This document shows positions 4,235 through 61,521 of a DNA stretch of 64,000 nt, in pieces. The position numbers and the translations under genes were made by a program. Position 1 is the first letter of the stretch. Each line of letters starts with the position of its first letter. The notes under the pieces were generated by a model that worked only from the letters and a program-made list of their open reading frames with translations, was not told where the DNA came from and did no database searches. Source of the stretch: a virus; the IMG/VR virus record IMGVR_UViG_3300042883_000874, positions 37,923 to 101,922 of that record. One strand, given 5' to 3'.

Positions 4235-7200
4235 ATGGCAGAAGAATTAGCTAGTCAAGGACAAGAACAAGAACAACTTGCTCCTCAAGAAAGTGAATTA
4301 ACTAATGGGGCTCCTGCTTTACAAGCTTTAAATAATTCTGCTGTTGATAGAATAAGACAAATTGAAGAATCTTTAAATTTACCAGCTAGACCAAATAGTA
4401 TTGATGCTTATAAAAATATAGCAGGTAATCCTATAACAGGATCTAATCCTTCAGCAAAAAATTCAAATAGCTCTGTTGACTTTTTTACAAGCATGGATAA
4501 AGCTTTATCAGCTATGCCTAAAAAAGAAAGTGATATCTATGGAGCAATGAGACCATTTAGTTATAATGGTGATACTGATGGAGCTAACTTTGAAAGATAC
4601 CATTCTTCTGGTGATTTGTATAATAAAATTGGCTTTTCTCCTTATAGAGATAATGAATCTTTATATAATGATAAGATGACATTTGGTGATGAGTTTGTAA
4701 GAGCTGCATCACAATGGGATAACTTAGTAGGTACAGGTTTTAGATCCGGAATTAGGTCTTGGAGTACTTTATTTACTGATCCTTTAGCTCCAGATTTAGA
4801 AGGTGCTAGAGAAATGGAAAGAATAATGGCTGTTGGTTCATCTACAAAAGGTGGTATTGGTGGTTTTTTTATAAATACTTTTTTAAACTCAGGATATACT
4901 ATTGGTATTGGTGCAGATTTTTTAGCTGAAGAATTAGCTTTAATGGGATTAACTGCTGCTACTGGTGGACTAATGGGAGCAACTGGTGCTTCTATGATGG
5001 TAGGTAAAGGCTTAAATGCTGTTGAAAATGTTTTTCAAGGAGCTAAAACTGCTTTTGCTGGGTCAAAAAGAATGGAGAATCTCCGTGCTATAAACAGTGT
5101 TCCTGAAATGAAAAGTCTTTGGACTAAGATGAGTCAAGGAACTAAAAGTGTTGTAAGAGAAACTGCTAATATTTTAAATCCTTTAGACCAAACTGTTGAT
5201 GCATTAAGAGCTACTGACTATGCAAGTAACTATGCTAAGATGACCAAAACTTTTGGAGCTTTTGCTGATGACATGTTGATGATGAAAGGAGCTGTTTCTG
5301 AAGCTAAGCTTGAAGGTGGGATGGCTAAGATTAATATTACAGAAGATCTTGTTGCAAAATATAGATCTGAAAATGGTAAAGATCCTGATGGAGCAGAGAT
5401 GCTAAAGATAGAAAAAATTGCTAATGATAAAGCTTATCAAGTTGCTTTTTGGAACTTACCTGCAATTACTACTAGTAATAAGTTAATGTATGCTACAATG
5501 CTTGCTCCTTTAAGAAGTGTTATGGGAAGAGAAGGTGCTGTTAAATTAGTAGATGATTACTTGTTTAATGGTAAAACATTCTCTGCTGTAGGTGAAGGAT
5601 TCTTATCTAAAGGTAAAGCTGCATTACAATCTTTTACAAAACCTAAATTTTATGGTCAGTTTGGTATGAATTATCTTAAAGCAAACTTTGCTGAAGGTAT
5701 TCAAGAAAACTTACAAGAAGCTATATCTAGTGGAGCTGCTAAACATGCAATGCAATTATATACAGATCCTATTAAAGCAGGTTATGAAGGTTATATGCCT
5801 CATTTTATGCAAGGTCTTGGTGAACAGTTTTCTGCACAAGGAGCTGAAACATTTGCTGGTGGTTTTGCTATGGGTATGTTTGCTCAACCTGTAATGGCTG
5901 CACCTTCTGTTGCTATAAGTAAGCTAGTTAAAGCTTGGGGTACTGAAAATTATGCTGCTGCTGAAAAATTAAACAAAGAATTTAAAGCTAAAAATGCACA
6001 ATATTTAAATGACTTTTATGATAAAGCATTAATTACATTAGCTCCTGATATAGACAATTCTATAACAACAGGTAGATTAGCTGATGATATGTATACAGCT
6101 GCTAGAAATGGTAAAAAGAAAGAAGCTATTGATGCTATAGAAAACATTAAAGATAATAAAATACTAGTAGCCCTTCAAACTGGTAAATTAGATATTATGA
6201 TTAACAAAGTTGCTCAATATAAAAACTTAAGTAGAGCTGAAGTTGTTGAAGCATTTGGTAAATATGGTATTAAAGAACAAGATGTAGACAGTGCTCTAGG
6301 TAAAATAGATGGTATTGTTGCAAGAGCTAATCAACTTAAAAAAGACTATGAAGATGTTGCCGAAAAATATCCTAATCCATTTAATCCTAATAAATTTATA
6401 TTGGGAACTTCTGAAAGAAAAGCTGCAGAAATTGCTTACAAAGCTTGGGAAACTGCTAAGTATAACTTAACATTTGCTAAAGCTACTTATACTTCTCACA
6501 GTAAAAGAGTAGCTGATGTAGCTAATATTTTCTCAAATATTTCTAATGACCTAGCTAAAGCTGATGCTCAAAACTTAATGACATTGCTTAACCCTGCAAC
6601 AACAAAAGGTGAGATCTTAGCACTAAGGCAAGAGCTTTCTGTTCTAGATGATAATGTTCCTGAACAAAAAAAGCTTAAAGCAGAAAAAACTAAACAGCTA
6701 GAAACTATAAATAATTTCTATGAAGCTGTTAAAGCTGTTAAAGAAGCAAAAACTCCTGAAGAAAAAGAAGCTAAAGATGAAATAGCTAAGAAAGCTTTTA
6801 TGGAGCATGTTAAATTCTTAGCTAAAAAGAATGATCATATTGTATTTAATGAAGATATAGAAAAAGCTTATAGTGTAGTTAAAGATCATATGAGTCTTAA
6901 AGATGATATGAAAGGTCTTGCTGAAAGTATTAATGTATTAATGGCTCCTCAAAACTTTTTTAAATTACACACTAGATTAAATGATGCTTATAGTGAAATT
7001 CTTAATAATAAAGAAGGTATTATTGAAGAAAATCAAAAGTTAATTAATAGATTAAACAGTATCAATGGTATATTAAATTTAGTTACTGTAGACTCAGGTT
7101 TAAATATCCCTAATGAATTAATAGAAAAATATGTTGAAGCTTTAGATAATGATATAGAAATGCCAGTAGCTACATACTTTATGGATGCTCAAGGTAATAA

Positions 7201-54256: not shown

Positions 54257-54329
54257 TGATCCTGCCAAGATTTGAACTTGGAGCCTATACATTAGAAGTG
54301 TATTGCTCTTCCATTTGAGCTACAGGACC
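54257..54329 (-). tRNA. tRNA-Arg(UCU), CCA not encoded
   Basis: GGTCCTG/CAGGATC acceptor stem, TAGCTCAAATGGAAGAGC D-arm, ATACA-CTTCTAA-TGTAT anticodon arm, CCAAG-TTCAAAT-CTTGG T-arm. Confidence 0.92.
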
Positions 54330-56411: not shown

Positions 56412-56807
56412 TTATTTGTTTTTAATTATTTCTATTAGTTTATCTAAACAAGCTTGTTCTGCTTCTTCGTGAGTGTTATATATCTCATTCCACACATTGA
56501 GATAATGATCTTTTTTCCAAATACTACCTTCAAACTTATTATCAGGTTCATCATCTTGATATACAACACTATAAAATAAATCATACTTCTCTCTAAACCA
56601 TCTAAATGCTTGTTGGTATAGTGGTGCACCAAACCATTTTAACCTACCATGTTTCTGAAAAGGTGTATAATCTCCTGAAGCATCTCGCATCACATTGAAA
56701 TAAAAAGCATCTGTATTTTTACCATCCCAAAAAGCCAAACAAGGTTCATCAAATCCTAATTCTTTTAAAGCTACTGCTTGGATGTAGCTAACAAACTCAT
56801 TTTCCAT
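56412..56807 (-). CDS. Phage protein (FVSY.QA..LK.LGF.EPC family)
   Basis: Motif shared with 58957-59223. Confidence 0.7.
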   Translation of the reverse strand: MENEFVSYIQAVALKELGFDEPCLAFWDGKNTDAFYFNVMRDASGDYTPFQKHGRLKWFGAPLYQQAFRWFREKYDLFYSVVYQDDEPDNKFEGSIWKKDHYLNVWNEIYNTHEEAEQACLDKLIEIIKNK

Positions 56808-58531: not shown

Positions 58532-58732
58532 TCAATTCTCTTTGCCATTAGTTATATCTTTTAGTTGGTTAAGTATACTTTCTGATTTTTTACCCCAAAA
58601 CATCTCACACTTATCTTGGTCTCTAGGAGAATCAATAAAATATGATTGCATTTCTGGGTCTGCTTCACAGGTGAATCTGTAACAAAGTTCCTTTAAAGGA
58701 CATGTGTCATCTTTACATTTAGTTATATCCAT
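58532..58732 (-). CDS. Small Cys-rich protein
   Basis: DITKC....CPLKELCYRF...QSYF...C. Confidence 0.65.
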   Translation of the reverse strand: MDITKCKDDTCPLKELCYRFTCEADPEMQSYFIDSPRDQDKCEMFWGKKSESILNQLKDITNGKEN

Positions 58733-58761
58733 GTTATTTCTTTTAAGTTATTGATTAGATA

Positions 58762-58940
58762 ATCTACTACTTAACCCACAAACAAACAGATAACTATTTG
58801 ATTGACAGTGGAATTAAGTAATAGATGTTTAAAGATTAATCTAAGCACAAGTTATAACTTCCTACTTCAAAAAAAAGCCTAAGCCACTAGAGGAGGAATA
58901 ATAAGGTACTAGATACTTATATTATAACTGTGCATTAGAT
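58762..58940. ncRNA. Tandem long stem-loops, candidate small RNA
   Basis: 58762-58779 pairs with 58808-58826; 58839-58857 pairs with 58922-58940. Confidence 0.4.
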
Positions 58941-58956
58941 ATGTTGTTTACTTGAA

Positions 58957-59223
58957 TTATCTCTCATAATGTTGTATTCTAAGTTTTTTTATTAAGTTAT
59001 TTACTTGGTCTTCTTTTTCTTTTTCATCTAAGCACATAACACCTCTTTGTATTGTAATTTGTTGTTGTAACCATCTGATTGCTTGTTGATATAGTGGTAA
59101 TTGAACAAGTCCTTCACCATTATCCATATCTTTAGATGCCATACAAGGGTCAGTAAAACCTAATTTTTTTAAATGTAAGGCCTGTTCATAAGAGATGAAC
59201 TCTTTTTCAAAATTGTGTTCCAT
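58957..59223 (-). CDS. Paralog of 56412-56807
   Basis: EFISYEQALHLKKLGFTDPC...PLYQQA.RW. Confidence 0.65.
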   Translation of the reverse strand: MEHNFEKEFISYEQALHLKKLGFTDPCMASKDMDNGEGLVQLPLYQQAIRWLQQQITIQRGVMCLDEKEKEDQVNNLIKKLRIQHYER

Positions 59224-59264
59224 GTTTTTTTGTTAAATTGTTGATTACTAATAAGTTAAAGTTG

Positions 59265-59620
59265 CTTAGTAAAAAGGTTGAATAGTCTAAATCAAAAACT
59301 AAAATTAAGCCAAAGACCTCTCTCTGTGTTCAAAGTCAAAGATAAAAACTAAGTCTTGTTGTGTATCCTCACAGAGTTCTTCACTCTGCTTTTTTGTGAG
59401 GTGCTGCCAGTTTTTCCCATAGGGTAACCTGTCAAGCCATTGGTATCTTTTGTGAAAAGACCCTACAAAACTAGTATTTAAGTTTACAGAGAAAGCGGTT
59501 GGTGTACCATAAGGTACTTTTAGTATATTAATAAATAATATGATTTTTTTTAGAGTTTTTAGGAACCTTTTTACTAAGTTTAAAGAGTAAGAGAATCAGC
59601 TTAGGCCTATCTCTTACTCA
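59265..59620 (-). ncRNA. Candidate large structured RNA downstream of the coiled-coil gene
   Basis: Perfect 15-bp closing inverted repeat, nested stems, hexamer repeats. Confidence 0.6.
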
Positions 59621-59632
59621 CCTTCAATGTAG

Positions 59633-60553
59633 TTAGGATTCAGGATCCAAGTTCTTTAAGAAAAGATCTATGGTACCCTGAAAACGAGGATCAATGGAGA
59701 TCCTTAGTGCAGAAGCCTGCTGAATCTTGGTCTGTCTATCAGACTCAAAATTCCCAAAAGCTACAGTAGCAGCCTCACTATGAGTGCTCATTAAGTCAGA
59801 GTAATCCTGTCTCAACTTTTGGTTGATTAGATTAATCTCTGATGCCTTAACAGCATTCTCTTTAGAGATGCGAGCATTCTCCTCAGTAACCAAGTTCTTA
59901 ACCTTGGCCTTGAAGTAATTTACTCTCTGCTCATAGCTTCTGTGTAAAGCAGCTAACTTCTCATGGAAGCTCAATAGCTCCTCTGAGGTGTGGTGAGCTT
60001 CCACCTTCACAGGTGTTTTTATACCACTCTGGAGCTCAATGAAGTCTAAGACTTTCACATTAGGCAAGTCCTTTCTAAGAACATCCAAAGGACAATTCTT
60101 ATGTATAAACTGCCCTATATGAGAAGCATAGGCTTCTTGCTCCAAATACTCAGAGTACTCAGCTTTTGAGAGACTATCCCATCCCCAGTCTTCCCCTACC
60201 ATGTCTTGAATTACAAGAGTATGGTACTCAGGTTGCTCTGGGGCCACTAAGCTATTAATGAACCTTTCTTTCTTAAGGTCATTAATTAAGGCATCCTTAG
60301 CCTTGATGTTGCTCATCAAGAATGCCTGGGTTGCATGCAGTTGGCCTTTTTCTACCAACAGTTCTACTATATTAGTAGGAACCGGCTTACCTACTTGCAG
60401 CATGTAGGTTTCTCCATTGGTTTTGAAAACCTTTGAAGAGTTATTAATACCACTAATGGTATTACTAATCTCAGATGCTCTTTGATTACAAAGATTTGAG
60501 ATACTTGCTGCTTGTGATAAGCTTAAGCCTGTTTTGTCTAGATTATTTCTCAT
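59633..60553 (-). CDS. Coiled-coil protein (~306 aa; likely start MRNNLDKTGLSLSQA)
   Basis: Long helical ORF with GC-richer codon usage than its neighbours. Confidence 0.75.
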   Translation of the reverse strand: MRNNLDKTGLSLSQAASISNLCNQRASEISNTISGINNSSKVFKTNGETYMLQVGKPVPTNIVELLVEKGQLHATQAFLMSNIKAKDALINDLKKERFINSLVAPEQPEYHTLVIQDMVGEDWGWDSLSKAEYSEYLEQEAYASHIGQFIHKNCPLDVLRKDLPNVKVLDFIELQSGIKTPVKVEAHHTSEELLSFHEKLAALHRSYEQRVNYFKAKVKNLVTEENARISKENAVKASEINLINQKLRQDYSDLMSTHSEAATVAFGNFESDRQTKIQQASALRISIDPRFQGTIDLFLKNLDPES

Positions 60554-60633
60554 AATACTGTCTAAAGGGTTGACCAATACACCCAGAGGTTTTAGTTTTG
60601 TTGTTTGATTTGATTGTTGAATTGTTTGTTTTG

Positions 60634-60909
60634 TTAGATTAACCCATAGTTTTCAGGGTTATCTAACATATCCATGCCCATATGATAAGCAATATCATGG
60701 TCAACTTGGCTTATTGCTTCTTTCTGTAAAGCAATTAACTCTTCTCTTAATCTATTATTAAGTTTAAAGTCACCTATTGTCATGAATCCTTTTCTAAGGA
60801 CTGTACCTACAGGAGGTATATCAGCTACATATAGTTCTATTGTACTTTCTATACCTAAGCATTTAAGAGCTGTAATAGCTCTAACTGTTGCATCTTTAAA
60901 ATCTTCCAT
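60634..60909 (-). CDS. Hypothetical protein
   Basis: ORF. Confidence 0.55.
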   Translation of the reverse strand: MEDFKDATVRAITALKCLGIESTIELYVADIPPVGTVLRKGFMTIGDFKLNNRLREELIALQKEAISQVDHDIAYHMGMDMLDNPENYGLI

Positions 60910-61042
60910 GTCTGAGTTGGGGTTTAAGTTGTTGATTACTAATTGATTACATTCTTCAGGTAGACTAGTTCTAAACTAATCTACCACAGTTGAATGTTAC
61001 TGGTGGGTTCTTACGAATGAAGTATACCCACTAACCTTATGC

Positions 61043-61096
61043 ATTGCCTACACATATTTCTATGTGTTTCATCCCTTGAGGAATCATCAGGGCAAT
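61043..61096 (-). ncRNA. Type I hammerhead ribozyme
   Basis: AUUGCC-CUGAUGA-U(UCCU CAA GGGA)U-GAAA-CACAU(AGAAAU)AUGUG-UA^-GGCAAU. Confidence 0.8.
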
Positions 61097-61098
61097 TA

Positions 61099-61410
61099 TT
61101 ATTCATATCCTTGATTATCAGGGATATTTTCTCCATGAAAGTCATCATATTCTTTTAACTTTTCAGGAGATATAGTAGCTCTATGTTCTTTAATCTGTTT
61201 TTCTAATGAACAGATAAGAGCTCTTTGTTCATCTACCCACCATCTGTACTCAAGGTTCTCTTGATAAATATCAGATACATCTTCTATATCTTGTGAAGAT
61301 AACTGAGGTGGTCCTGTCATTATTAACTCTGATATAGCTGTGCTTAATTCAGAGTTTAATCCATCTAACCAAGTTAGTGGGTGTGATTCAGCTGTAATTT
61401 CTAGTTCCAT
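61099..61410 (-). CDS. Hypothetical protein
   Basis: ORF. Confidence 0.55.
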   Translation of the reverse strand: MELEITAESHPLTWLDGLNSELSTAISELIMTGPPQLSSQDIEDVSDIYQENLEYRWWVDEQRALICSLEKQIKEHRATISPEKLKEYDDFHGENIPDNQGYE

Positions 61411-61521
61411 TTTCTTTGAGTTGTTTTTTAGGGTTGGGTTAATTACTTAGATCCTATATTAGGCATAAAGATAGATTCATCATCTTGCCATATATATTCT
61501 TCATATTCTTCATCCATTGTT

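Follow-up and report, generated by a model that had tools for sequence, protein, structure and literature searches.

Phage repeat RNAs and the small proteins that partner them can, as VIPR and TIGR-Tas reportedly show, hide new principles of nucleic-acid recognition. The bacterial protein TRAP, a beta-sheet ring of 11 subunits of ~75 amino acids (aa), acts by attenuation at (G/U)AG sites in messenger RNA leaders. Evenly spaced triplets in a fixed number are the signature of an oligomer that binds one triplet per subunit. Large and ornate non-coding RNAs of large phages, such as GOLLD, ROOL and the species 1 and 2 RNAs of the T4 transfer RNA (tRNA) cluster, are often found beside tRNA genes; to our knowledge, they have no dedicated protein gene and no phased hexamer tracts. 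In VIPR, the protein Vipr is a RAMP protein with an RRM core, a G-loop and a thumb, and the vrRNAs are ~100 nucleotides (nt) long, with 9-16 YNNGG units of period 5 and hypervariable NN, often in arrays; NNNGG, YNNNG and NNNNG are repeat variants (bioRxiv 10.64898/2026.04.26.720920). Vipr oligomerises along these repeats, and recognition of gapped DNA targets is guided by the RNA. In this study, we analyse a gene for a 306-aa protein and the RNA directly behind it on the minus strand of a 64-kilobase (kb) window. The window is the whole stretch of DNA studied and represents the last part of a 101.9-kb IMG/VR phage contig (IMGVR_UViG_3300042883_000874), estimated to be 85% complete. On balance, we favour the view that the two constitute a two-part phage module, in which the protein, from a large virus-only family without a name, and its dedicated structured RNA would form a ribonucleoprotein.

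The module resembles VIPR in outline, and VIPR is its closest analogue, but it is not a member. Both are minimal phage modules of a small protein gene and a flanking repeat non-coding RNA (bioRxiv 10.64898/2026.04.26.720920, 10.64898/2026.04.26.720927). However, the 306-aa protein is modelled by AlphaFold (AF2) as a helical bundle with two beta-hairpins and without an RRM. It has no Pfam match to RRM or RAMP families, and no RAMP/Cas7 chain appears among the Foldseek and VIA matches listed. The RNA differs likewise, being 300-395 nt long, multi-helical and present in single copy, with 4 plus 5-6 units of period 6. Like the RNA sites of TRAP, it shows evenly spaced triplets (U-U/A-G) in fixed number, separated by non-conserved spacers, but no relation in sequence or fold was found; the protein has no Pfam match to MtrB and its model is mostly helical. 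It shares the size and ornateness of GOLLD, ROOL and the T4 species 1 and 2 RNAs, yet Rfam matches it neither to GOLLD or ROOL nor to any further family. Type III toxin-antitoxin systems (ToxIN-like) were considered and rejected: neither PADLOC nor Pfam matched the protein to ToxN/AbiEii-type toxins, and the RNA lies downstream of the gene with repeats of 6 nt, whereas the RNA repeats of those systems lie upstream and measure ~34-36 nt. A full-text literature search found no description of this protein and RNA module.

The linkage of gene and RNA was followed from both sides. A search of IMG/VR with the 306-aa protein yielded 80 loci, on contigs of 6-365 kb, and in these the non-coding stretch 3' of the gene was searched with BLASTN and then with two rounds of nhmmer. 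A homologous RNA is present at 79 of these loci (nhmmer, E 1e-14 to 1e-91), and the homology persists even at ~48% protein identity. The only unmatched locus is L025, where no more than 45 nt of DNA follow the gene; the L069 sequence breaks off where the gene ends. Parts of the RNA are better conserved than the protein (~90% nucleotide versus ~50% protein identity). In the reverse direction, IMG/VR was scanned with a pattern derived from the RNA alone, which returned 95 stretches. Fourteen of them are chance matches inside lysine/alanine-rich coding DNA and 81 are copies of the RNA. The open reading frame (ORF) lies directly upstream on the same strand in 78 of these copies, and the remaining three are cut by contig or locus ends. 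The linkage holds in both directions and is obligatory. No further neighbouring protein cluster is common to more than 24 of the 80 loci; the unit therefore comprises no more than the ORF and the RNA. One copy of the module is present in the phage's own genome.

Conservation of the RNA extends to its fold. An alignment of 56 RNA sequences (A2) served for RNAalifold and for the counts of pairs and of insertions or deletions (indels). RNAalifold predicted 40 pairs, 34 of them with compensatory changes. In a count of 34 pairs in five helices, 89.1% of the alignment cells hold standard pairs as compared to 66.5% after shuffling, a value that none of 500 shuffles raised to the observed one. When the 3' partner was slid by 1-3 columns as a control, pairing dropped to 35-48%. 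Two-sided changes occur in 33 of the 34 counted pairs. The long-range helix P2 was counted from sequence anchors in the 56 sequences, because MAFFT misaligned it. Its positions 0-8 are paired in 52-56 of the 56 sequences, with exchanges between UA, CG, AU and GC, and 90.7% of P2 is paired overall versus 70.4% with shuffled partners. A local hairpin, GCCUUUG/AGAAGGU, that would rival P2 was discarded for want of covariation (96.1% versus 96.0% shuffled). G-U pairs far outnumber A-C combinations (174 versus 44), which identifies the ORF-sense strand as the strand that folds. The minus-strand RNA of the 409-nt gap behind the gene folds at -100.9 kcal/mol as compared to -74.8 +/- 5.1 for shuffles (z = -5.2); for the plus strand of the same gap z is -3.1. 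Judged by comparative sequence analysis, the folded and conserved non-coding RNA directly behind the gene is real, far beyond chance, since it is kept in 79 of 80 loci and its helices covary. The covariation test that the initial annotation of this locus had suggested thus turned out strongly positive, and the Rfam search suggested with it assigned the RNA to no family. At gathering thresholds, Rfam (release 15) detected only a tRNA at 54257-54329 in the whole window, and a permissive search (E <= 10) of 58700-60700 gave only noise, with 18-22 bits against cut-offs of 50-94.

The RNA begins ~10 nt past the stop codon of the ORF on the same strand (Table 1). In 5' to 3' order it consists of the outer pairs P0, the hairpin HP0, the closing helix P1, a variable linker (J1/2), P2 and the central arm P3-P4-P5. 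The initial annotation had described an element of ~315 nt closed by a perfect 15-base-pair (bp) inverted repeat, with a hairpin between it and the stop codon. The inverted repeat is indeed perfect and the element is real, but it reaches slightly further than had been thought. The hairpin after the stop codon is also present; it is not a plain terminator but corresponds to HP0, which comparison among the phages places within the conserved RNA. HP0 has compensatory changes in all nine stem pairs and in both mini-stem pairs counted. Its upper part is conserved in sequence and comprises an internal loop, a mini-stem of 2-3 bp and an AYAA tetraloop, and the loop is ~90% identical in nucleotides between phages whose proteins are merely ~50% identical. 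P1 shows two-sided changes in all 15 pairs, with 88.9% of cells paired. The long-range helix CUUUCUCUGU/ACAGAGAGAG of the initial annotation is P2, and covariation supports it. Nested hairpins had also been listed. They exist in the window phage, but three of them do not belong to the family core, being lineage-specific insertions or variable elements. In the central arm, P4 (five pairs) and P5 (three pairs) covary, while P3 (CUGAG/CUUAG) is too highly conserved for a covariation test and its pairing is broken in three sequences. AUAAUUG, like CAGGUUA, represents conserved internal-loop residues of this arm.

Table 1. Coordinates of the protein gene and of the parts of the structured RNA in the window
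Feature	Position	Strand	Remarks
306-aa protein gene	59633..60553	minus	from the ORF list; family without a name
Whole structured RNA	about 59258..59623	minus	~366 nt; 5' GGU to 3' ACU of the outer pairs (P0)
P0, outer closing pairs		minus	GGU/ACY; ends of the RNA
HP0	59585..59619 (arms 59585-59594 / 59610-59619)	minus	10-bp covarying hairpin
P1, 5' arm	59564..59578	minus	15-bp closing helix, perfect inverted repeat with 59265..59279
P1, 3' arm	59265..59279	minus	15-bp closing helix, perfect inverted repeat with 59564..59578
J1/2	59498..59563	minus	linker rich in A/U, variable and less conserved than any other part of the alignment; lineage-specific hairpin(s)
J1/2 hairpin GUACC/GGUAC	59504-59517	minus	form present in the window phage
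P2, 5' strand, CGCUUUCUCUGU	59486..59497	minus	long-range helix
P2, 3' strand, ACAGAGAGAGG	59317..59327	minus	long-range helix
Central arm P3-P4-P5	59349..59474	minus	apical hairpin; conserved CAGGUUA at 59425-59431
Inserted hairpins of the central arm	59442-59463 and 59367-59401	minus	in A2, window phage and closest relatives only
Hexamer tract 1	59331..59354	minus	four phased units ACUUAG UUUUUA UCUUUG ACUUUG
Hexamer tract 2	59280..59316	minus	UCUUUG GCUUAA UUUUAG UUUUUG AUUUAG, then conserved CUAU box

Three features go beyond the initial annotation, namely phased hexamer tracts, the conserved HP0 loop and a neighbourhood of tRNA clusters. Tract 1 is flanked by the 3' strands of P3 and P2, tract 2 by those of P2 and P1. 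Both consist of U-rich units of the form NNnUuG and are unpaired in every subgroup fold. The information content per column follows a strict period of 6, with a near-invariant U at position 4 and G/A at position 6; positions 1-2 carry little information, and variability peaks there. By tree parsimony, the variable hexamer positions have undergone about as many changes as stem positions and fewer than the linker. Among well-aligned columns, no pairing partners covarying with them were found. Neither tract has an indel in the 56 sequences, and of 145 distinct copies, 124 have a tract-2 spacer of 25 nt, so that the number of units (4 and 5-6) is fixed. In some relatives (L096:7364-7430, also L108, L112, L122, L138 and L152), tract 2 repeats the exact tract-1 pattern, GACUUAG plus three hexamers, 42 nt later, for which reason the tracts may stem from an internal duplication.

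The protein belongs to a large family. Its relatives number more than 2,400 at 90% clustering and at least 713 clusters at 50% identity, 364 of which reach E <= 1e-10. Its homologues measure 303-306 aa, which supports the ATG at 60553 as start. Among the relatives listed, none exceeds ~370 aa and most are near 300 aa, and no fused or longer forms were found. Queries for more distant branches, with the single protein and with a profile, were both without success. The AF2 model is confident (mean predicted local distance difference test 84, predicted template modelling score 0.75) and shows two helix / beta-hairpin / long-helix units, mostly helical with two beta-hairpins. The invariant residues of the family are chiefly polar, histidine or basic and are sited on the long helices; a conserved basic helix contains NYFKAKVKN. 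Pfam, PHROGs, NCBIfam and PADLOC matched the protein to no family, and a PDB sequence-profile search gave nothing significant. Structure searches were similarly barren: Foldseek returned no match in PDB and, in BFVD, solely an uncharacterised homologue, a wide VIA-align search gave only generic helical bundles (Z < 8) and no convincing solved fold, and the ESM Atlas yielded no usable match. A homodimer prediction scored 0.41 against a mark of 0.42 and is evidence for neither side.

The family is confined to viral or viral-like contigs. In 185,579 species genomes, only five protein matches were found, all on contigs of metagenome-assembled genomes (four of ~2.7-3.7 kb and one of 29.6 kb). These are probably binned phage DNA, since the contigs are small and all come from such assemblies. 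The GenBank phage collection matched the module neither by DNA nor by protein; hence no cultured phage in that set carries it.

The window is A+T-rich (~28-30% G+C) and, besides long stretches of small genes, contains a 3,673-aa ORF and genes for a DNA polymerase and a helicase. The module lies in the replication/early region of the phage, on the strand of all the genes that surround it. As stated in the initial annotation, the ORF is richer in G+C than its surroundings (~41%). Two small proteins, one encoded just after the RNA (58957-59223) and one 2.5 kb downstream (56412-56807), have a common N-terminal motif (ME.EF.SY.QA..LK.LGF..PC) and look, from this motif, like a paralogous family of early proteins.

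Within the window, no Bacteroidota-type or sigma-70-type promoter was found for the module, including upstream of the ORF, and no intrinsic terminator or terminator-like site on the minus strand. The 3' end of the RNA (59258) and the start of the next gene are 34 nt apart. Co-transcription of ORF and RNA, which the initial annotation had presumed for what is a conserved module, is something we infer from the common strand, from the gap of ~10 nt and from the fact that no promoter or terminator matched. As neither a promoter nor a terminator-like site was found, the module of the window is probably part of a longer transcript. In one relative, L015, a perfect Bacteroidota-type promoter (TTTG, 19 nt, TATATTTG; L015:2921-3000) stands ~35 nt before the ORF start, which suggests Bacteroidota hosts and an independent transcription unit in that phage.

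In many relatives, the module keeps company with stable RNAs. ARAGORN detected at least one co-oriented tRNA or transfer-messenger RNA (tmRNA) within 3 kb in 42 of the 80 loci, and all 122 tRNAs are on the module's strand. In some loci, a tRNA ends 26-81 nt ahead of the ORF or begins a few nt behind the RNA. In whole records, the module lies in or beside a tRNA cluster in four of five; the sole tRNA of the window is 5 kb downstream of the module. Rfam searches of 20 related loci revealed, besides numerous co-oriented tRNAs, a tmRNA, a group I intron, GOLLD and two hatchet ribozymes. In L015, a group I intron match (4274-4461) directly 3' of the RNA, a full-length GOLLD RNA (5528-5942, 306 bits) 1.6 kb downstream and the module itself are embedded among more than ten co-oriented tRNAs. 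The hatchet self-cleaving ribozymes (L031:2493-2629 and L053:1305-1439, 73-82 bits) are on the same strand upstream of the ORF and may cut the module's transcript. At the corresponding side of the window ORF, a permissive Rfam search (E <= 1) of 60560-61500 found no hammerhead and no other family, including at the site 61043-61096. L021 carries a phage tmRNA (5491-5879, 59.7 bits) ~1.6 kb downstream of the module. In L016 (4216-4304) and likewise in L017, ARAGORN reports a tRNA-like gene with a four-base anticodon (aaag) 5 nt past the RNA flank. The frequent siting in clusters of tRNAs and stable RNAs points to RNA or translation biology and not to DNA packaging or virion structure.

Since the RNA accompanies the gene in every related phage that can be checked, the two probably form a protein-RNA particle. 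We suggest that gene and RNA are transcribed together, with the RNA as the 3' portion of a transcript that in many phages would also bear tRNAs. A scaffold of P0, P1, HP0, P2 and P3-P5 would hold out the two unpaired, phased hexamer tracts. The protein would recognise the conserved HP0 loop, and copies of it, or its two helix-hairpin-helix halves, would bind the tracts in a 6-nt register. The outcome would be a ribonucleoprotein of fixed stoichiometry, which would act early in infection, probably on RNA or translation-related processes. Three points weigh against such a particle. The protein has no RNA-binding domain or fold recognisable by Pfam, Foldseek, VIA-align or PDB profile. The association with tRNAs is not obligatory, as one complete 365-kb phage has its module ~110 kb away from the tRNA arrays. 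Finally, the strict linkage could also reflect cis-regulation of the gene by the RNA, or a shared function without contact.

A shared function without contact is the most serious of these alternatives, even though we hold it unlikely. The RNA would then be a stand-alone stable non-coding RNA acting on a host factor, with the protein in the same pathway but in no joint particle; for example, the U-rich hexamers might serve as a sponge or decoy for a host single-strand RNA-binding protein or a ribonuclease. The tRNAs, tmRNA, GOLLD, group I intron and hatchet ribozymes beside the module in relatives are typical of stable-RNA genes, the hexamers are U-rich, unpaired and exposed, and the want of a known RNA-binding fold in the protein agrees with this explanation. 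However, a near-perfect two-way linkage at ~10-nt spacing, in hundreds of phages with differing neighbours, exceeds the linkage that is usual for a shared pathway. The constant number of hexamers and the conserved HP0 loop moreover suggest a single dedicated partner.

Less probable still is that the RNA acts in cis as a 3' untranslated element, which blocks exonucleases, sets the 3' end or mediates feedback of the protein on its own message, and that it plays no part as a molecule in its own right. It invariably follows the same gene on the 3' side, starts ~10 nt past the stop codon and has no promoter of its own that we could find, and in many relatives the outer helices are followed by a U-run that could end or protect a transcript. 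On the other hand, a multi-helix RNA with invariant, fixed-length single-stranded tracts far exceeds the needs of known 3' stabilisers. In the window, no terminator-like site lies behind the RNA, where the next gene follows after 34 nt, and in some relatives a tRNA within a few nt would free the RNA through normal tRNA processing.

A VIPR-like RNA-guided system is very unlikely. In such a system the protein would polymerise on the tracts and the variable hexamer positions would serve to recognise a gapped target, either in the host or in a competing element. Constant and variable positions do alternate in short tandem repeats beside a small phage gene, as in VIPR (bioRxiv 10.64898/2026.04.26.720920), and variability is highest at hexamer positions 1-2. 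But the protein is not of RAMP/RRM type, the period is 6 and not 5, and the constant part is U-N-G instead of GGY. The variable positions evolve no faster than the stems and more slowly than the linker. There is a single RNA per phage with a fixed number of repeats and no array, and in the phage's own 102-kb genome, gapped searches (skips of 0-4) hit nothing apart from the locus itself.

The weakest candidate, a DNA-level element (an origin with iterons, a miniature transposon with the 15-bp inverted repeat, or a retron-type template), could draw on the perfect terminal inverted repeat, the short tandem repeats and the site in the replication/early region, but is largely refuted by covariation and by the G-U bias, as compensatory changes keep six helices and G-U is favoured over A-C on one strand only (the mark of a single-stranded transcript), a 6-bp period misfits a single face of duplex DNA, no reverse transcriptase is encoded on the contig, and one genomic copy does not make a spreading transposon. 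For retrons in particular, the initial annotation had compared the closing repeat to a1/a2, and an inverted repeat that closes a long, structured RNA is indeed reminiscent of msr/msd. This comparison failed: PF00078 (RVT_1) is unmatched across the whole 102-kb contig while control genomes match, the adjacent gene is not a reverse transcriptase, and the closing repeat is the P1 stem, one of six covarying helices. A miniature inverted-repeat transposable element was likewise rejected, given the single genomic copy and an inverted repeat that covaries as an RNA helix across phages.

To return to the ribonucleoprotein that we favour, we rate the chances as about even that it represents a previously undescribed class, distributed over hundreds of uncultured phages of the crAss-like and jumbo types, in which a protein of new fold would assemble, in strict six-nucleotide register, with two fixed-length tracts on an RNA scaffold. 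The protein family is large, yet it has no name, no domain and no solved relative. Its RNA partner, with six covarying helices, ranks among the better-supported new structured RNAs that can be obtained from sequence alone, and the display of a fixed number of phased short repeats on a scaffold implies that protein and RNA assemble in a defined way. As a third module of the general shape of VIPR and TIGR-Tas, unrelated to either, it is a concrete, testable target. An RNA model would annotate a recurrent "empty" gap of 300-400 bp in many large environmental phage genomes, and the siting of the module in phage tRNA clusters may help to explain other roles of those clusters. If the module is indeed such a class, its action might be directed at host translation or tRNA metabolism; alternatively, it might represent a second, non-RAMP solution to repeat-coded nucleic-acid recognition.

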